From positions 1 to 64,000 of the forward strand of contig CAXXXD010000003.1 in NCBI GenBank assembly GCA_963663385.2: a stretch of DNA of 64,000 nucleotides, given 5' to 3'. Origin of the DNA: Oceanispirochaeta sp. GTDB taxonomy: Bacteria; Spirochaetota; Spirochaetia; DSM-2461. The notes beneath the pieces were generated by a model. It searched no databases and was not told the origin of the DNA. It was given only the letters and a program-made list of their open reading frames with translations. Positions 54,440 through 63,222 of the stretch are shown here, piece after piece. Both the position numbers and the translations under genes were made by a program. Position 1 is the first letter of the stretch. The number at the start of each line of letters is the position of its first letter.

Positions 54440-56545
54440 TCATAAAAGATCTTCAGTTGTAGCAACCCTGTTCCTGCCGTTCTGTTTGGCAAAATAGAGG
54501 GCATTATCCAGCTTTTTCAACAGATCTTCACTTTTCCCGCTCTCTTCGGAAGAGGCTACCCCGAAGCTGCATGTAACCGGCCCGACCGTTTTGAAATTAT
54601 GGGATTCCAGAACCTTTCTCAGGGTCTCGGCCAGAAAGGCCGCGCCCTTTAAATTGGTACCCGGACAGATAATCAGGAATTCCTCTCCGCCCCATCTGCC
54701 GAAAATGTCAGTTCTTCTCAGCTTTTCTCCCACCAGTCTGGCAAGGGTTATAAGTACCTCATCTCCCTCCAGATGGCCGAAACTGTCATTAATCAGTTTA
54801 AAATGATCTATGTCAAACATTATCAGGGCATAGTTTATATTTACCCGTTTTCGAAGATTGTGCTGTGTTTCCAGCGTCCTGTCCAGTTTCCTCCGGTTGT
54901 AAATTCTGGTTAAGGCATCTGTTTCGGATAGGGAGGACAGTTCCTTTTCTGCGCTGATATCATGCCCCACAGTTATATAGCCGGTTTTCTCTCCGAAGAT
55001 ATTATAGAGGGGAAGGGTATAAGCTTTTGACCAGTAGTAAGACCCGTCCTTTTTTAAGTTTTTGATCTCTCCTTCCCAGAGCTCCTCCCTGGATATACTC
55101 TCACGGTACTCTTCCAGAAATGATGCAGGAATATCCGGGTGCAGAGTGGTTTCGTAGTTTCTGGATAGCAGGTCGGTTTCATCAAAACCGGATATACTGC
55201 AATAGGCTTTGCTTGCCTGTGTTATAGTTCCTCTGCAGTCTGTCCGGATGATGGGCACATTATTGTTTATAATATCCACATAGGCATTAAGCTGCTGTTC
55301 CGCTGCCTTTTGTTCTGTAATGTCCCTGGCCACACCGCGGTACCCTTTCAGTGTTTCCGATTCCCTGACGATTATCCCGTTCATAAGCAGACAGAGCTTT
55401 TTCTTTTCCTTTCCCTCCATCCACAATTCCAACCCGCGGATCCATGGTTCATCTTCATTGATATTCACCTGATACAGCCGGGCGGTCATTTTCTCTTTAG
55501 ACTCTTCGCTCATTAAATCCAGAAGATTTTTTCTTATTAAATCTTCAGGACTATAACCGAACAGATTCATAACCGAGCCGGATGAGTAGGTCAGGTTCAT
55601 CTTACTGTCACACTCCCATACCCAATCGGAGGAAACCATGGCAAAATCTTCAAACCGTTCCTGATTTACCCGGAGTTCTTCGGATTTTTCATAGAGTTTA
55701 TAGATGAGGTATTCAAGGAAAAACAGAATAGAAAGGTATATGAGAACGAGAGTTACCACCTCCATGGGTTGCAAGTTATTTTCTTTATAAGGAGCAATTG
55801 TTATTGTCCACTCCCTGTCGGGAAGAACAACCTGAGTCGATAGGGCGCGATCATTCCCATATATTTCGGATGATCCGAACAGGGGGATCTGAGTGTCCGA
55901 TTCACTTCTGTTATCCATAATAGCCAGGTAAACACTGTTTTCCCGGGCCAGATCGCTAATGGGAGCGATTAGACTGTCAAAATCCAATATAGATGACACA
56001 ATCCCCCAGAAACGGTCAGGGTCATGATCCTGAAAAACGGGTACCCTGCCGATAAGACCGACACCTCCCTGAATCAGTTCCAGGGGGCCTGCCAGTATCA
56101 TCCGGTTTTCATCCCGCGCCTTCCTAACCTGTTCCCACTGATCCGGCAGGGATCGGTAATCAACTCCCAGCACCGCTTCGTTCCCTTCCAGGGGATACAC
56201 GTCCTTGATTATGAGATCCGGTGCGATCACAACATTCTTGAGATTATTATACTGCCTGAATAGCTGCTCCGCCAGGGCGTAAAATTCCTCATGGGCTGCT
56301 TCCGGATGAAGCGACACATACGCGGCTATATTATATATGATCAGAAAATTGCTGTTGATGGAATATTCCAGCCGGTTTCTTAATGACGACAGGATGGAAA
56401 GGTTTCTTTCTCTGCTCTTGTTCTGCTTTTGAATGAAGGCTACAGTTCCAATAAAAACGAAAAACAGTGTTACCAGTATAAAAAGCCCGGCACTATTACG
56501 AATATACTTTTTTCTCATGATCAATATAGTACGTCCTGGAAACAT
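54440..56545 (-). CDS. Diguanylate cyclase with CHASE-like and two PAS domains
   Basis: YPLEGNEAVLG, AGPLELIQGG (CHASE-like); DWVWE PAS; WEGEIKN..KDG.YW PAS; RRTD...RWGGEEF. Confidence 0.92.
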   Translation of the reverse strand: MFPGRTILIMRKKYIRNSAGLFILVTLFFVFIGTVAFIQKQNKSRERNLSILSSLRNRLEYSINSNFLIIYNIAAYVSLHPEAAHEEFYALAEQLFRQYNNLKNVVIAPDLIIKDVYPLEGNEAVLGVDYRSLPDQWEQVRKARDENRMILAGPLELIQGGVGLIGRVPVFQDHDPDRFWGIVSSILDFDSLIAPISDLARENSVYLAIMDNRSESDTQIPLFGSSEIYGNDRALSTQVVLPDREWTITIAPYKENNLQPMEVVTLVLIYLSILFFLEYLIYKLYEKSEELRVNQERFEDFAMVSSDWVWECDSKMNLTYSSGSVMNLFGYSPEDLIRKNLLDLMSEESKEKMTARLYQVNINEDEPWIRGLELWMEGKEKKKLCLLMNGIIVRESETLKGYRGVARDITEQKAAEQQLNAYVDIINNNVPIIRTDCRGTITQASKAYCSISGFDETDLLSRNYETTLHPDIPASFLEEYRESISREELWEGEIKNLKKDGSYYWSKAYTLPLYNIFGEKTGYITVGHDISAEKELSSLSETDALTRIYNRRKLDRTLETQHNLRKRVNINYALIMFDIDHFKLINDSFGHLEGDEVLITLARLVGEKLRRTDIFGRWGGEEFLIICPGTNLKGAAFLAETLRKVLESHNFKTVGPVTCSFGVASSEESGKSEDLLKKLDNALYFAKQNGRNRVATTEDLL

Positions 56546-56578: not shown

Positions 56579-58399
56579 CTAATTCAGCAGAGCCCTGGTT
56601 TGCTGATCTTTTAACTGAAAAAAGGATACCGTTCTTTCCAGCATATTAGCCTGTTCCGCAAGGTCTTCCGAGGTAGCGGATATCTCCTCCGAAAAACTGG
56701 CGTTCTGCTGTACAACCCTGTCCAGTTGCAGAATCGCGCTGTTTACCTGTTCGACACCCGAACTCTGTTCATTGCTGGCTGCGCTTATCTCTCTTACCAG
56801 TTCGGATGTCTGCTTAATATTCACTATCAGTCTGGAGATCATTTCAGCTGCGGATTCCGCACTTTTACTCGTTTCCTGAGAGAGTTCGGTTATCTCCCCT
56901 GCGGCTTCCTGACTGTTCTCCGCCAGTTTCCTGACCTCAGATGCCACGACGGCAAAACCCTTGCCGTGTTCTCCCGCTCTGGCTGCCTCAATGGCGGCAT
57001 TCAGAGCCAGCAGGTTTGTATTTCTGGCAATTTCCTGAATAATGGAAATCTTCTCTATAATTGATTTCATGGCTTCCACAGCTTCTTTTACAGCGGCTCC
57101 GCTCTCTTCTGCATCCCTGGCAGCCTGTTCCGCCATTTTCTCGGTTTGCATGGCATTGTGGGCATTCTGGGAAATATTCGAGCCCATTTCCTCCATAGAG
57201 GCGGATACCTCTTCCGCTGCTGTCGCCTGGGAGGAAGCTCCTTCCGACATCTGTGCTGTGTTGGAGCTGAGCTGAACACTGCCCGATGCAACAGAACCGG
57301 ATGCTTCCATAACCTTCCCGACAACATCGGCTATCTTGACAGACATTTCCCGCAGGGCATTGGCAAGGTCTCCCACCTCATCATTCGTATAAACATCCAG
57401 AGTGGCATTCAAGTTTCCCCCCGCAAGTGTATTGGCAAACTGTACGCCCTTCTGCAGAGATCTGGTAATTCTGTTTAATATAGTTATGAAAACAAACAGG
57501 GAAATAAAGACTATGACAACCAGCAGGATAATGACATTCCTGACAAAGGCTGTCAGAGTAGAGGTAAATTCCGCAAGCGGGTAGGCAACGATCCATGTGG
57601 CTTCTTCATATTTCATGGCACCGTAAAAGGTATCGTTCAGCACCTTAAAACCCTCTCCCCTTACAGATTGTAAAAAGAACTTAAGCTCTTCGTCATTAAG
57701 GGATTTTCCAACCTTGTTCAATTCGGTATGTCCCATAATTGTAAAATTATTATCTATAAGAAAGGCTGTTCCATTGTGCGAGATCTGGAGACCTTCGAAA
57801 GTACTGGCAACGGAACTGGATTCGATTACACTCTGCAGCTCCTTTGGCGTAATTCCAATCTGTACAATCCCCGGAGCATCTTTTCTGGCCACTCCTATAT
57901 ACTGGAACAGTACTTTATCCACACCTCTGGGCGCCGGATCCTGAGCCAGGGTCAGGTCAGGATCCTTCAGAATCCGGAGGAAGGGTTTTGTCTGCTCCGA
58001 GGTTGCAAAATCAAACCCGAAAAATCCGGGAATATTCCCCCACCGGAGTACACCCTCGCCGTCGGTTACATGAATCTCGTCTATTCCGATCGCCTCGGCC
58101 AGGGCAGCCATGTTCTCCGTTTCGATTAAAGCGGGATCTGTCTGGATTGTTTCTGCAACAGATTTGGCAATACGGATGAAATTTTTATTAAGGGATTCTT
58201 TCAGAATATTAATCTGTTCCTGGGAATCCTTCAATGCCGTGGTAATCTCAGAAAGCTGCTCTTCAGCTGTAAGAAGCATCAAGTCATCGATGGAATTTCT
58301 CTGAAGTACATAGGAATAGGTTGAAACCAGAACGAGCGACACAATAAGGATCGCTGATATGGGAAGCAATATTTTAGTTTTAACACTGAGTTTTATCAT
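56579..58399 (-). CDS. Methyl-accepting chemotaxis protein
   Basis: TM-sensor-[40 protein letters not shown]. Confidence 0.96.
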
Positions 58400-58460
58400 T
58401 ATACAAACTCCTATAAAAAGTCAATCATAAGCCTATTAACAAGCTTACAATTGAACCGGA

Positions 58461-59573
58461 TTACCCAGTTTTTACGGCATTGAATGCAGCCGCCTGCATC
58501 TTCAAGTACTTATCATCCGGAACCATCTTCAACGGATCAAAGGGTTCACGGGTTTTCAATATGGAGTACACTACCGTACTCATCTTTCTTGCAGAGGCGA
58601 TAATACTCGTGCCGCTGCCCTTGTTCTTCTTCATCGCTCTGTACTTCGTCATGATACGGTAATTGCCAGTCGTTTTCCGAGTTCTAACCATTCCCATAAC
58701 ACACTGAACAAATGCCGTTCTCAGTTCTACAGCCCCTCTCTTTGTTATATGCCCATGATGAATCGTCTCATTGGAGTTCTGCACCCATGGTACAAGACCG
58801 GCATAAGCCGAATACTTCTTGGCACTGGCGTACCGCTTGATATCATCCGTATAGGCCCTAATAGTCGATGCCGTTATCAATCCGACTCCCGGGATCGTCT
58901 GCAATAACTGTACATCCTCATCTTCCTTTACAAGTTCCAGCAGGACTTTCTCTAACTGCTTGACCTGGTTCGAAACCTGATCTATCGTAGAAAGCAGCGG
59001 TTCTATCGCTTTGGCAGCGCTTCCGAAACTCCTATGGTCCACGAGACCGATGAGGATGCGCTGCCTTTCTTTTTTACTCTGCAGCGCAGCTCTTTTTGTT
59101 TCAATTCCATACCCTAGAAGCAGTCCGTGAACCTGATTCTTCAAAGATACGACTGATTTAACAAGGATAGTTCTGGATTTAAGAACTCTACGGATATCCT
59201 CACTCTCCTGAGAACAAAGCTGTGATTCGGGAAGCATATCTTTTTCCAAGAACTCTGCTAGAGTTCTGGCATCATGCTTATCCGTCTTTTTCACTGATTC
59301 ATTTACAACTTTGAATTTCAGTGTATTCACAACCACCACCTCAATCCCTGCTAGCAATAGCTTGTTACGGAAGAACCGGGCATTTCCTGTTGATTCCACT
59401 GCAGCCCTAACATCAAGGCCCTCTTCTGTATAGGACACTGCTTTCTCAAGAAATGCTCTGTAACCGTCCTCAGAGGTCGGATACATTCCTGATTCACAAA
59501 TGCTTCTATCATCACTCAGGAAACAGACTGTTAACTGGGATTTGTGCAGATCCACTCCGATACTCATCTTCAT
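58461..59573 (-). CDS. IS110 family transposase/recombinase (DEDD + Ser)
   Basis: IGVDLHK, AVEST, KTDKHDA, TIPGVG, YAGLVP..QNS, ITKRG; start set at ATG 59573 after AGGAG. Confidence 0.95.
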   Translation of the reverse strand: MKMSIGVDLHKSQLTVCFLSDDRSICESGMYPTSEDGYRAFLEKAVSYTEEGLDVRAAVESTGNARFFRNKLLLAGIEVVVVNTLKFKVVNESVKKTDKHDARTLAEFLEKDMLPESQLCSQESEDIRRVLKSRTILVKSVVSLKNQVHGLLLGYGIETKRAALQSKKERQRILIGLVDHRSFGSAAKAIEPLLSTIDQVSNQVKQLEKVLLELVKEDEDVQLLQTIPGVGLITASTIRAYTDDIKRYASAKKYSAYAGLVPWVQNSNETIHHGHITKRGAVELRTAFVQCVMGMVRTRKTTGNYRIMTKYRAMKKNKGSGTSIIASARKMSTVVYSILKTREPFDPLKMVPDDKYLKMQAAAFNAVKTG

Positions 59574-59584
59574 ACCTTCGCTCC

Positions 59585-59742
59585 TATTGCCTAAAACAGC
59601 GCCTGTACGGTGAATTGATTCCATTCTCCTATCCGGTCTCGAAGACCATTGAATGTTTCGGTCACGGCTCTTCATTCTCCTGTACGGTCTCGGAGACCAG
59701 TAAAAATGGCGAACAGTAACCTGGCTGTTCTAAACGATGTTT
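59585..59742 (-). ncRNA. Putative IS110 bridge-RNA-like noncoding RNA (approximate limits)
   Basis: About 190-nt left-end noncoding region downstream of TACAAT; GAACAG/CTGTTC stem and two similar structured modules CATT..GGTCTYCGAGACC..AGGAGAATG. Confidence 0.6.
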
Positions 59743-60116
59743 AGAACATTGTATCAATCCACAAGCCTATGAAGACTTTTTATCATTCCTCCTGTAATAG
59801 AATTTAAAAATCTGTTCACTTTAAATAACGTATAAATGAACTATCTAAACCAATCCTAAAAAAACGTGGTATAGAGTGCTTGGTATCTCTATGAAGTATT
59901 GTGATTATTGAGTAGGGATAGTAATGCCCGTTTGTTAATTCTGTGAAGGCCGAACGGCCCGTCTCATGACAGCGGCCATCCTGCCCGGTAAAAACACCAG
60001 CTCAATTCAGCTCCGTTAAAAATACGTTTCCCGGGAGTCAAAGGCATATCAAATAAGTGGTATTAAAGATCATATATTTTGAAGAGATATCGGGGATCAG
60101 GGCTTATAGTAGGGAT

Positions 60117-61322
60117 ATGAAAAAGAAAACCCCTGTGATTTCCGGCCTTTTATCGCTCTCTTTTATTGCCTTTATCTCCCTGGGACTGCCCGACGGCTTA
60201 CTGGGAGTCGCCTGGCCGGGGATCCGTCAGGATTTTTTCCTGCCCCTTGATGCATTGGGATCCCTCCTGGTTTTTTCCACGACCGGTTATATCCTGTCCA
60301 GTTTTTTCAGCGGAACCTTTGTCCGGCTGCTCGGATTGGGAGGCCTTCTCAGCATCAGCTGTTTCATTACGGCATCGGCTCTTCTGATCTACTCATTTAC
60401 ACCCTTCTGGATTCTTTTTGTTCTCTCCTCCATGCTGGGAGGAGTCGGGGCCGGAGCCATTGATGCGGGTATTAATACATATGTTGCCGGGAACCATAGT
60501 GAAAGGATGATGCAGTGGCTTCATGCCAGCTTTGGAATCGGAGTAACCCTCGGCCCACTTATCATGACATTCAGCATTGTTCATACCGGATTCTGGCAGC
60601 GCGGGTACCAGACTGTTGCCGCAGCGCAGCTGGTTCTGGCCGTCGTCTTCTTTACGACCCGATCATGGTGGAAGGGTCGGAAATACGAAGATGCTGTTCA
60701 GGAAACAGATCCTGTCAGTTTAACGGATACCCTCAAAGTCCCGGCCGCCTGGCTTGGTATGCTGATATTCCTGTTATACACAGGTGTGGAACTGGGGACC
60801 GGACTCTGGTCCTATACACTGCTTACCGAGTCCCGGGGAATCTCGCCGGGGACAGCCGGATTTGTAACAGGCAGCTACTGGGGAATGTTCACGCTGGGAA
60901 GAGTCCTGGCCGGATGGTATGCGCGGAAACTGTCTGTGGGGAATCTGATTTATATCAGTATCTTTCTGGCTCTTGCGGGAGTCCTTTTAATTTTATGCAA
61001 CATACATAACGTCCTGACCGTGGCAGGTTTTGTTTTAACAGGATTGGCAATCGCCCCTGTTTTTCCGGGGCTTGTTTCCGATACGGGAAACCGGGTCGGT
61101 TCGGAATTCGAGAAGCATACAATCGGGATGCAGATAGCGGCCGCCGGTGTGGGGGCCGCCATTATTCCGTCACTGGCGGGTGTTTTCGCCAGAATATTCG
61201 GGCTGGAAGTCATACCGTTTTTTATCCTGACAGCCCTGATCCTTTTGCTATTCTTTTTCCGTTTATCCCATGGTATGAAAAAGAACCGTCAGCCCGTAAG
61301 AGAGTCGTCCCTTACGGACTGA
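60117..61322 (+). CDS. MFS transporter
   Basis: FISLGLPDGLLGVAWP, GAGAIDAGIN, WLHASFGIG..LGP; about 12 TM. Confidence 0.9.
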   Translation: MKKKTPVISGLLSLSFIAFISLGLPDGLLGVAWPGIRQDFFLPLDALGSLLVFSTTGYILSSFFSGTFVRLLGLGGLLSISCFITASALLIYSFTPFWILFVLSSMLGGVGAGAIDAGINTYVAGNHSERMMQWLHASFGIGVTLGPLIMTFSIVHTGFWQRGYQTVAAAQLVLAVVFFTTRSWWKGRKYEDAVQETDPVSLTDTLKVPAAWLGMLIFLLYTGVELGTGLWSYTLLTESRGISPGTAGFVTGSYWGMFTLGRVLAGWYARKLSVGNLIYISIFLALAGVLLILCNIHNVLTVAGFVLTGLAIAPVFPGLVSDTGNRVGSEFEKHTIGMQIAAAGVGAAIIPSLAGVFARIFGLEVIPFFILTALILLLFFFRLSHGMKKNRQPVRESSLTD

Positions 61323-61329
61323 CGCAATC

Positions 61330-63222
61330 TTATCCCTGAATCATCTCTTCCCACTCCGTATACATCTTCTCCAGGCGGGAGGTCAGCTTATCCAGCTTGC
61401 CGGCGGTCTGCCGGCCTTTCAGTTTGTCCTTATCCCGGAAGGCTTCCTTTAATAACTCCTCCAGTCTGGATTTTTCATTCTCTCCTTCCTGAATCCGTCT
61501 TTCCAGAGCCCGGCTCCTGTCATCTGCGGCAGGTTCCGTTTTCTTCCTTTCAGCTCCCCGTCTTGAAATCTTTCCGCTGAGCCGCGGCAGAACGGGATAC
61601 TTCGTTCTGAAATACCCGGAGAAATTCCCCTCATAGGATTTGAATCGCCCCTTATCAATTTCTATAACCCGGTCTACCAGTCTGTCCAGAAAGTAGCGGT
61701 CGTGCGAGACCACCAGAACGGTTCCCCTGAACTTTTCGATAGCCTGTTCAATCATCTCCCGGCTGGGGATATCCATATGATTGGTCGGCTCGTCCAGTAT
61801 GAGAAAGTTGGTTTTTCTGTACATCAGACGGGCCAGCTGGAGACGGTTGACTTCTCCCCCGGAGAGAACGGAAAGAGGTTTTTCCATATCCCCGCAGGAA
61901 AAGGAAAAGTTTCTGGCCAGGGAAAAAGCGCCGTCCTTTGACAGAGCTCCCCAGCTTCGAATTTCATCCTCTACTGTAAGGGCTCCTTCCTGAAATTCCG
62001 GTGTTTGAGAAAGGTAGCCCACTATCTGACTGGGGCCCAGGCGCAGGTGAGTACTGTCCCATCTCCCCTGATCCAGCAGAACTTTCAGAAAGGTGGATTT
62101 CCCGCAGCCGTTCGGTCCCACAAGAGCCACCTTCTCCCGGCAACGGATTTCCAGATCAGCCCCGGCAAAGAGGGTTCTTTCTCCAAAACTCCAATTAAAA
62201 TCTTTTACCTGCAGGGCGATGTGTGAGCGGGAATCCTCGTCTCCGAAATCCAGGTTGAGGGCTTCTTCCTCCAGGCGGGGTTTCTCAAGGGTTTTATTTC
62301 TTTCTTCTGCCAGTTTCTGTTTCGCCGTACCCAGGCGCGCCATGACACTGGCCGGCGGATTATACTGGTTCATGGCTATGGTCTGGAGCTGTTTTATCTC
62401 CTTTTCCAGTTTCGCCTGAACCCTGCGGCTTGCTTCATAGGCGCTTTGCTCCGCAATGGCATTTCTGTATTTTTCTGTTCTAAAGGACGTATAGCTCCCT
62501 TTAAATTCAGTCAGTTTGCCCTCAAACAGGTCCAGCAGAACGGGACAGGTCTTTTCCAGAAGATACCGGTTGTGAGAAACAATCAGAACAGCGCCCGGAT
62601 AGGACGCCAGAAAGGATTCCAGCCAGGCCAACCCCAGATAATCCAGGTGATTCCCCGGTTCATCCAGAATGAGCAGTTCCGGTTCAGTCAGAAGGGCTCT
62701 GGCAAAAAAGATCATGCTCCGTTCTCCGCCGGAGAGGGAGCCCATCGGCTGGGTCAGAGGATTATCCAGCCCCAGTTTCGCTAAAAGGGCTTTTCCTCTA
62801 TCCAGAGCGGTGTATCCTCCTTTACTTTCAAAAAGGTCGCATACCTTCTGATACCCGGCCAGCAGCTTTCCCATTTTTTCCGGATCGGTTGCCAGCGAGG
62901 GATCAGCCATTCGCAGCTCCATCTTCTTCATCTCTCTGCTGAGGCCGGAGAGCTCTTCCACCAGGAACTCTTCAATCGTCCGGGACGGCTCGAAGCGGGG
63001 CTGCTGGGGAACGTAGCCGCATCTCAGCCCCGGTTTTTTCATGATGCGTCCCTTATCGGGTTCGTCCTCTCCCGTAATTAAGCGGATAAGAGTTGTCTTT
63101 CCTGCTCCATTGGGACCTATCAGACCATATTTTCCGCCTTCCAGCAACCTGAAGCCGGCGTTGATGAGTATCTCTCTGGAACCGTTATGCAGGTTCACAT
63201 TGTTTGCGTTGATTAAATCCAT
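61330..63222 (-). CDS. ABC-F family ATP-binding protein
   Basis: Two ABC cassettes (GPNGAGKT/LSGGE/LDEPGNH; GPNGCGKS/LSGGE/LDEPTNH), no TM, C-terminal coiled coil. Confidence 0.93.
   Translation of the reverse strand: MDLINANNVNLHNGSREILINAGFRLLEGGKYGLIGPNGAGKTTLIRLITGEDEPDKGRIMKKPGLRCGYVPQQPRFEPSRTIEEFLVEELSGLSREMKKMELRMADPSLATDPEKMGKLLAGYQKVCDLFESKGGYTALDRGKALLAKLGLDNPLTQPMGSLSGGERSMIFFARALLTEPELLILDEPGNHLDYLGLAWLESFLASYPGAVLIVSHNRYLLEKTCPVLLDLFEGKLTEFKGSYTSFRTEKYRNAIAEQSAYEASRRVQAKLEKEIKQLQTIAMNQYNPPASVMARLGTAKQKLAEERNKTLEKPRLEEEALNLDFGDEDSRSHIALQVKDFNWSFGERTLFAGADLEIRCREKVALVGPNGCGKSTFLKVLLDQGRWDSTHLRLGPSQIVGYLSQTPEFQEGALTVEDEIRSWGALSKDGAFSLARNFSFSCGDMEKPLSVLSGGEVNRLQLARLMYRKTNFLILDEPTNHMDIPSREMIEQAIEKFRGTVLVVSHDRYFLDRLVDRVIEIDKGRFKSYEGNFSGYFRTKYPVLPRLSGKISRRGAERKKTEPAADDRSRALERRIQEGENEKSRLEELLKEAFRDKDKLKGRQTAGKLDKLTSRLEKMYTEWEEMIQG

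Follow-up and report, generated by a model that had tools for sequence, protein, structure and literature searches.

An IS110-type element with a predicted bridge RNA at the Shine-Dalgarno sequence of a chemotaxis receptor gene in Oceanispirochaeta

The bridge RNA of the IS110-family element IS621 is described, in the passages of PMC11208160 consulted here, as a 5′ stem-loop and two stem-loops with internal loops; in each loop, 8–9 nt of the 5′ strand pair with the bottom DNA strand and 4–7 nt of the 3′ strand with the top one. According to the same passages, a promoter is rebuilt across the junction of the IS621 circle and the family excises scarlessly (PMC11208160). Here we analyze an element of this family in a 64,000-nt stretch of Oceanispirochaeta sp. 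DNA (assembly GCA_963663385.2, contig CAXXXD010000003.1, positions 1 to 64,000; the window), where it stands directly in front of a gene for a methyl-accepting chemotaxis protein (MCP). Taken as a whole, the best explanation, and a very probable one, is that a recently active, 1381-bp bridge-RNA insertion sequence (IS) of the IS110 type has inserted at the MCP Shine-Dalgarno sequence, and that the arms of a hairpin beside this gene are the element's own ends. The main features are as follows:

58413..59793, minus strand: the complete element of 1381 bp, with the CTCCT on the right (59789-59793) included; equally 58408-59788.
58461..59573, minus strand: gene of the IS110-family DEDD recombinase; 370 aa from MKMSIGVD, with relatives aligning from the first residue.
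58413..58432, minus strand: arm of the subterminal inverted repeat at the recombinase-distal end, about 19-20 bp; the left "hairpin arm" of the first-pass annotation.
59765-59783, minus strand: the other arm, upstream of the recombinase gene, about 19-20 bp; the right "hairpin arm" of that annotation.
58408..58412, minus strand: AGGAG (CTCCT on the plus strand), the MCP Shine-Dalgarno sequence and left copy of the 5-bp junction sequence.
56579..58399, minus strand: MCP gene, 606 aa, ATG at 58399, 8 nt after AGGAG.

We call the recombinase-distal, MCP-proximal end RE (58413-58460) and the end upstream of the recombinase gene LE (59574-59793). These non-coding ends are unequal, with 220 nt upstream of the gene and 48 nt downstream. 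On its protein sequence the element is a member of the IS110 family, as the first-pass annotation had recognized: the recombinase contains PF01548 (E 1.1e-20) and PF02371 (E 5.2e-19), both past the curated Pfam cut-offs. In the PDB, the IS621 recombinase (8wt6) matches residues 202-349 at E 9e-16 and ISCro4 matches at about 1e-15; the N-terminal domain aligns weakly to 8wt6. Matches from a plasmid search were labeled only generically, as "IS110 family transposase".

Where does the element end? The genome (4 contigs, 5.3 Mb) contains 10 copies, eight identical and two with one mismatch each, and in all of them identity extends through both arms to the CTCCT on each side (here 58408-58412 and 59789-59793), the flanks diverging only beyond. 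Each arm occurs exactly 10 times in the genome, every time at an element copy. Relatives in two other genomes align end to end over 58408-59794, at 75% DNA identity in G009 (1 copy) and 71% in G013 (6 copies), and their terminal bases are those of this element. In sequencing runs X2 and X3 a repeat unitig comprises exactly 58408-59793, and the flanks branch there into those of other copies. An empty MCP allele was found in run X7, which comes from another study and a near-identical strain whose flanks differ at one base: in a contig of 1720 nt, 58407 is followed directly by 59789, so that 1381 bases are absent. Five letters fit either side of this joint, and a single CTCCT is left, without a hairpin. 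Run X1 (share 0.09) gave only two 151-nt pieces inside the recombinase gene and is uninformative for the locus; in 40 related genomes, orthologous empty sites could not be used at the DNA level, the MCP 5′ region being merely 65–71% identical. Because copies, unitigs and the X7 contig agree, we conclude that the element is 1381 bp long and that the pre-insertion site was a single CTCCT without a palindrome. The MCP site is polymorphic between near-identical strains.

On the gene strand, the layout reads flank-AGGAG-element-AGGAG-spacer-ATG, with the recombinase co-oriented with the host gene and AGGAG intact after insertion. Of the 92 loci examined, 10 belong to this genome and 6 to relatives, and the other 76 were collected by scanning species genomes with the protein as seed. 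Complete copies with these termini number 59 (10 here and 49 elsewhere); another 14 have diverged or run into a contig end, and in 19 the motifs do not occur as written. AGGAG stands at both junctions in 59/59 complete copies, which bears out the site-specific insertion that the first-pass annotation had assumed. The downstream open reading frames (ORFs) are intact at all 10 copies in this genome; the nine besides MCP carry the Pfam domains H+-pyrophosphatase, GDPD, GNAT, DUF6588, URO-D, alpha/beta hydrolase, Gfo/Idh/MocA, ACP (MdcD type) and Zn-ADH. Among the 60 copies with at least 80 nt of downstream flank, an ATG 3–9 nt after AGGAG opens an ORF of at least 60 codons in 52; GTG or TTG does so in none, and 8 copies have no such ORF. 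A metagenome sample, scanned with the 17-nt RE end, yielded 67 distinct junctions with at least 200 nt downstream (among loci L118-L197), where 40 ATG, 1 GTG and 1 TTG starts lie within 12 nt. The arrangement extends to a clade at 32–35% protein identity (18 loci), in which AGGAG precedes 13 of 16 LE junctions and an ATG follows within 12 nt after 15 of 16 RE junctions. In this clade (loci L097-L115; Lentisphaeria, Victivallales and a Clostridia metagenome-assembled genome, MAG) the ends are different, ...TTATCAT|AGGAG and AGGAG|ATGGTATGATAAATA, and occupy the same place before ATG. Translation-start targeting thus seems old in this branch of the family. Judged from these loci, the target is the Shine-Dalgarno sequence itself, not a palindrome. 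Single cases at the LE junction (L091, L076) and at the RE junction (L057) suggest that strands are exchanged inside AGGAG; alternatively, they may reflect later mutations.

How could an element recognize a Shine-Dalgarno sequence? The non-coding LE contains a candidate guide with the following parts:

59610..59762, minus strand: structured core, candidate bridge RNA; a stem (59758-59762/59610-59614) encloses a 5′ hairpin (59726-59748) and two loop-bearing stem-loops.
59626..59655, minus strand: donor-binding loop; 5′ strand CAUUC (59651-59655), 3′ strand AUAGGAG (59626-59632).
59660..59721, minus strand: target-binding loop; 3′ strand UACAGGAG (59677-59684), 5′ strand CAUUUUUAC (59700-59708), distal hairpin 59685-59699.

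For 26 lineages we aligned the 220-nt stretch that separates the recombinase start from the upstream AGGAG (alignment A1). The RNAalifold prediction from it comprises a long-range stem, a basal stem that bears an internal loop and a distal hairpin, and a second distal hairpin. Over the 26 predicted pairs, 96.3% of cells are paired compared with 89.7% in column shuffles (0 of 500 as high), and pairing falls to 20–45% when the partners are slid; compensatory changes occur at 10 of the 26. The folding strand is the recombinase strand, because there are majority U-G pairs (17/26 and 25/26). The 220-nt LE is therefore predicted to encode a bridge-RNA-like molecule. The 404-aa ORF listed from 59675 over-extends into it: its start lies 34 codons 5′ of the conserved MKMSIGVD (minus strand 59574-59675), so that it overruns the RNA gene through the donor-binding loop, and the recombinase gene of such elements may be over-extended by gene callers.

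In the donor-binding loop, CAUUC is complementary to GAATG, the first five bases of the element after AGGAG (59784-59788), and AUAGGAG has the same sense as the RE end, ...TATAGGAG. Where the ends have changed, the loop compensates in five of seven complete variant lineages (L061, L067, L068, L069 and L091) and in the partial copy L065. The 3′ strand of the target-binding loop reads NN+AGGAG, in the same sense as the host flank plus AGGAG; the guide in this genome is UACAGGAG, and 9 of its 10 host flanks end in AC. In 55 copies, the guide agrees with the flank at base -1 in 91% and at base -2 in 75%, compared with 41% and 44% when guides are shuffled among lineages, and shuffles reached the observed values 0 times (base -1) and once (base -2) in 5000. 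At the third base back from AGGAG, the same comparison gave no guide-flank signal. As we read this covariation, the left half of the target is recognized by base pairing with NN+AGGAG. Landing on ribosome-binding sites in one orientation would follow, since the 3′ strand of the target loop spells NN+AGGAG and the donor loop matches the ends.

One lineage departs from this pattern in its flanks. L041-L054 and L059 are 15 copies on one Spirochaetia MAG chromosome, and 11 of the 15 flanks end in AT before AGGAG. These AT flanks fit the donor-loop AUAGGAG better than the lineage's own target guide (UUUAGGAG), and the flanks of L046 and L052 differ from the RE end at no more than 2 positions in 15 nt. 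"Half-match" recombination, the subject of a 2026 preprint, may bear on this lineage.

What, then, reads the right half of the target? The 5′ strand of the target-binding loop consists of an invariant CAU and six mostly U bases, and it would pair with the A-rich spacer and perhaps with the ATG, which would limit insertion to real translation starts. This genome contains 1462 ACAGGAG sites, of which 8 are element junctions and 127 (8.7%) have an ATG-initiated ORF within 3–10 nt; this start context is found at 10 of 10 own insertions. Compared with the complement of the 5′ strand, occupied sites match at a mean of 6.3 of 9 positions and at 7 or more in 5 of 10, a score attained by 8 of the 127 unoccupied start-context sites and by 14 of 1327 elsewhere. 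ATG accounts for 92 of the 94 starts called across the genome and metagenome sets; its share in a crude genome background is about 80%.

Both ends carry further conserved features:

58419..58424, minus strand: TTGACT, a candidate -35 box facing out of RE, by consensus match only.
59777-59785, minus strand: TGATAAAAA, a candidate extended -10 box that overlaps the LE arm; G10-A16 invariant in 26 lineages.
58421..58454, minus strand: terminator-like hairpin with a 15-pair stem, then the T run CUUUUUAU; ends 8 nt before the MCP AGGAG.

The arms remain inverted repeats while their inner sequence changes between lineages, and TTGACT and TGATAAAAA are among the most conserved bases of both ends. Joined across one AGGAG, they give TTGACT-17 nt-TAAAAA, TG-extended and complete only across a circle junction. 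We infer that the arms split a promoter that forms only in the excised circle. The RE arm doubles as the 3′ half of the hairpin at 58421-58454, and a hairpin of -8.5 kcal/mol or better stands just before a U run in 27 of 28 distinct RE sequences, with differing stems; from this we infer an intrinsic terminator that ends the recombinase transcript. Such a terminator would prevent run-around transcription in the circle; in the chromosomal copy, transcripts would end 8 nt short of the host AGGAG. An outward promoter in RE that would drive MCP (TTGACT-18 nt-AATGAT, or by eye a 15-nt spacer and TATAAT) was considered and rejected: transcription would begin at or after the ATG. In two loci (L069:2620-2678 and L124), two RE motifs lie 34 nt apart, the last 29–34 nt of RE, including AGGAG, being tandemly duplicated directly before the host gene; this looks like a solo end beside a full copy.

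At the MCP locus, two more features matter for expression:

54440-56545, minus strand: CHASE-PAS-GGDEF gene, following MCP.
59918..59947, minus strand: promoter-like site upstream of the insertion point, candidate native MCP promoter that would now be directed into the element; it matches 9 of 12 consensus positions only, which is not evidence of function.

As the first-pass annotation noted, the element cuts off MCP, with the GGDEF gene behind it, from its upstream region; the gene keeps AGGAG-8 nt-ATG, and its upstream region is now 1381 bp away. The host gene's own promoter would read the chromosomal bridge RNA and recombinase, and, barring a leaky terminator, expression of the MCP-GGDEF pair should be lower from the occupied than from the empty allele. 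A reversible on/off switch is possible, because the family is reported to excise scarlessly in the passages used of PMC11208160 and because the MCP site is polymorphic between strains. The element may thus be a live source of expression variation, since this site differs between near-identical strains. Ten genes lie behind a copy, including the MCP-diguanylate cyclase pair, the H+-pyrophosphatase and several oxidoreductases. A second copy (G000:C3:65118-66451, L009) lies 5.3 kb away in the opposite orientation before the ACP (MdcD-type) gene, about 1.1 kb beyond the window. The two inverted copies bracket MFS and ABC-F genes (60057-63222) and could support inversion of this segment.

Three other explanations have to be weighed against an element that ends at AGGAG, is guided to translation starts and reduces expression behind it. 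The first-pass annotation had described a 1334-bp IS110 element bounded by a duplication of AAGCCTAT and inserted in the loop of a host hairpin beside the MCP ribosome-binding site. What it saw is there: AAGCCTAT lies at 58429-58436 and 59763-59770, removing 58437-59770 in silico leaves a 10+5-bp inverted repeat that abuts CTCCT (minus-strand AGGAG), 8 nt from the MCP ATG, and the two element ends resemble each other over 16 of 17 nt. Palindromic repeats are moreover targeted by some IS110 elements, according to parts of PMC11208160 and bioRxiv 10.64898/2026.03.19.712850. The proposed boundaries nevertheless fail, because identity runs on past AAGCCTAT to CTCCT in 10/10 copies and the arms travel with all of them and with 71–75%-identical relatives in other genomes. 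The in-silico excised 53-mer has no match in the 5.3-Mb genome at up to 8 mismatches, so that an empty hairpin is absent from it, and the X7 empty allele skips 1381 bases and lacks the arms. The 8-mer itself is exact in 9 of 10 copies (the remaining one reads TAGCCTAT) and is not kept in the G009 and G013 relatives. Its source is a near-palindrome within the subterminal inverted repeat, through which the inverted copies can be read as direct ones too, and by our estimate about 15 such 8-bp pairs are expected by chance within 1.4 kb. The donor loop, finally, matches the bases beside AGGAG and not those beside AAGCCTAT. Insertion into a host hairpin, to which we assign next to no probability, is refuted; the palindrome is part of the element itself. 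Members of this element family should be annotated as ending at AGGAG, and the inverted "hairpin" beside the ribosome-binding site should not be taken as a host regulatory structure. A near-neutral insertion is harder to dismiss. The RE hairpin would then be a recombination or RNA element, and MCP and GGDEF would be expressed by read-through via the recombinase transcript and the regenerated AGGAG. Consistent with this, every copy is co-oriented with its gene, AGGAG and spacing are preserved, the ten intact downstream ORFs (among them the H+-pyrophosphatase and the first gene of the ACP-type operon) suggest tolerance, and the stem has merely 3 G-C pairs and a U run only 5 long. The position of the hairpin directly before a U run while its stems change is, in contrast, the signature of an intrinsic terminator, and it is seen in the distant clade as well. 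We regard near-neutrality as a genuine possibility, with chances somewhat below even.

Several points weigh against the reading that we prefer, a bridge-RNA element directed to translation starts. The X7 empty allele is one contig, at depth 2, from one run, and donor-loop complementarity is broken in two of the seven complete variant lineages (L066 and L087). A scan of 58000-60200 against Rfam 15 gave no match, also when E values up to 1 were allowed. No RNA run was found to cover the region, and the RNA, junction promoter, terminator and any effect on MCP are predictions. Each loop has its longer, same-sense guide on the 3′ strand and its antisense guide on the 5′ strand, unlike IS621 as described in the text of its report, and the IS621 pairing scheme cannot simply be copied here because the guides sit on opposite loop strands. 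With moderate confidence, on text passages of that report apart from its figures, we consider the layout mirrored. The right half of the target raises further doubts. When lineages were shuffled to compare the 5′ strand with the downstream flank, with either the core or the ATG as anchor, the matrix had no diagonal but a diffuse z of about 2 everywhere, which is a composition effect; the AGGAG-to-ATG spacing varies from 3 to 11; and the MCP site is itself a poor match to the 5′ strand, with 5 of 9 positions and a spacing of 8. A 6-nt spacing, tried as a ruler, was rejected, as it occurs in 31 of 52 of the genome set but in 14 of 42 of the metagenome set and in 176 of 558 of the background. At 25 of the 67 metagenome RE junctions, no ORF of at least 60 codons starts within 12 nt; these may be off-target copies, small genes or assembly joins. 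The absence of position-specific covariation, the variable spacing and these start-less junctions all fit a rival in which the RNA reads NN+AGGAG alone and the position in front of genes is a survivor effect: intragenic copies would be lost by selection, and those at ribosome-binding sites kept since the site is regenerated. CAU would then be half of an intramolecular CAU/AUG helix that closes the loop, and in 25 of 26 sequences RNAalifold indeed pairs its C and A with UG in the AAUG of the opposite strand of the loop. Set against this are the start context of all own insertions compared with 8.7% of ACAGGAG sites, the enrichment of 5′-strand complementarity at occupied sites even over unoccupied start-context sites, and the excess of ATG among called starts. 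Moreover, compensatory changes mark the corresponding strand of the paralogous donor loop as a DNA guide. We consider a pure survivor effect unlikely and retain a target loop that would read both halves of the site.

How widely might this hold? The element clade was found in Spirochaetia, Desulfobacterales, candidate phyla, Dehalococcoidales, Bacteroidales and Leptospira and, at 32–35% identity, in Lentisphaeria and Clostridia. A broad generalization is conceivable, though we think it more doubtful than probable: a deep clade with a target loop hard-wired to the translation start by an NN+AGGAG strand and a CAU strand reading the A-rich spacer and start codon, together with a borrowed promoter, a terminator-based gene trap and mirrored guides. 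If so, nearly every host would offer such elements a suitable target downstream of an active promoter. The host promoter would be borrowed for the element's RNA and recombinase, and the terminator at its end would turn the element into a naturally occurring polar gene trap that can be reversed precisely. Guides mirrored relative to those of IS621 would also be combined with long inverted repeats of the IS1111 kind. For work on bridge recombinases, this would provide a natural target loop aimed at a 7-base site before many genes, mirrored guides and a built-in predicted terminator; target loop, guide layout and terminator can be tested with existing two-plasmid assays.

The closest described systems are IS621 and the IS110 bridge-RNA recombinases, and the comparison here is with the parts of their reports that describe these features (PMC11208160, PMC11208158). 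The element shares with them the DEDD and Tnp domains, a long upstream and a short downstream end, and a predicted RNA with a 5′ stem-loop and two internal-loop stem-loops, one matching the donor ends and the other the target, here on its left side. As in IS621, donor and target have a short sequence in common that stands at both junctions, the empty site is scarless, and promoter halves are predicted to be split between the two ends. Unlike in IS621, protein similarity is distant (E 1e-15 over the C-terminal 150 residues), the shared sequence is the five bases AGGAG rather than a dinucleotide, and the target is a ribosome-binding site rather than a REP element. The long RNA-bearing end lies upstream of the recombinase gene as in the IS110 group, and not downstream as in the IS1111 group, according to the passages used of PMC11208160. 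In those passages the subterminal inverted repeats of the IS110 group measure 2–3 bp, and the repeats of about 20 bp found here resemble instead the long ones (7–17 bp) of IS1111-group elements such as the attC-targeting IS4321/IS5075. The model of the first-pass annotation resembled ISPpu10 and other REP-targeting IS110 elements, whose target is, according to bioRxiv 10.64898/2026.03.19.712850, a structured, repeated intergenic sequence. Unlike ISPpu10, our element has a host target without a palindrome.

Ribosome-binding sites have been linked to this family before. Work by Doran in 1997 reportedly found that the mycobacterial IS900, an IS110-family element, inserts in one orientation at the ribosome-binding-site and start-codon region of host genes. 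The insertion point of IS900 is said to fall after the ribosome-binding site and before the start codon, with a benefit for a gene encoded opposite the transposase. In the literature on IS110 elements and Shine-Dalgarno sequences, and on IS900 insertion at ribosome-binding sites and start codons, we found no description of this family and no bridge RNA that spells a Shine-Dalgarno sequence in its target loop; supplementary catalogues outside this search may list the family. Unlike IS900 as so described, the present element inserts at AGGAG itself, regenerates the site and is co-oriented through its recombinase with the host gene. Targeting of ribosome-binding sites by an IS110-family element is thus already in print, and the element described here is of the ordinary bridge-RNA IS110 kind, with unusual details.

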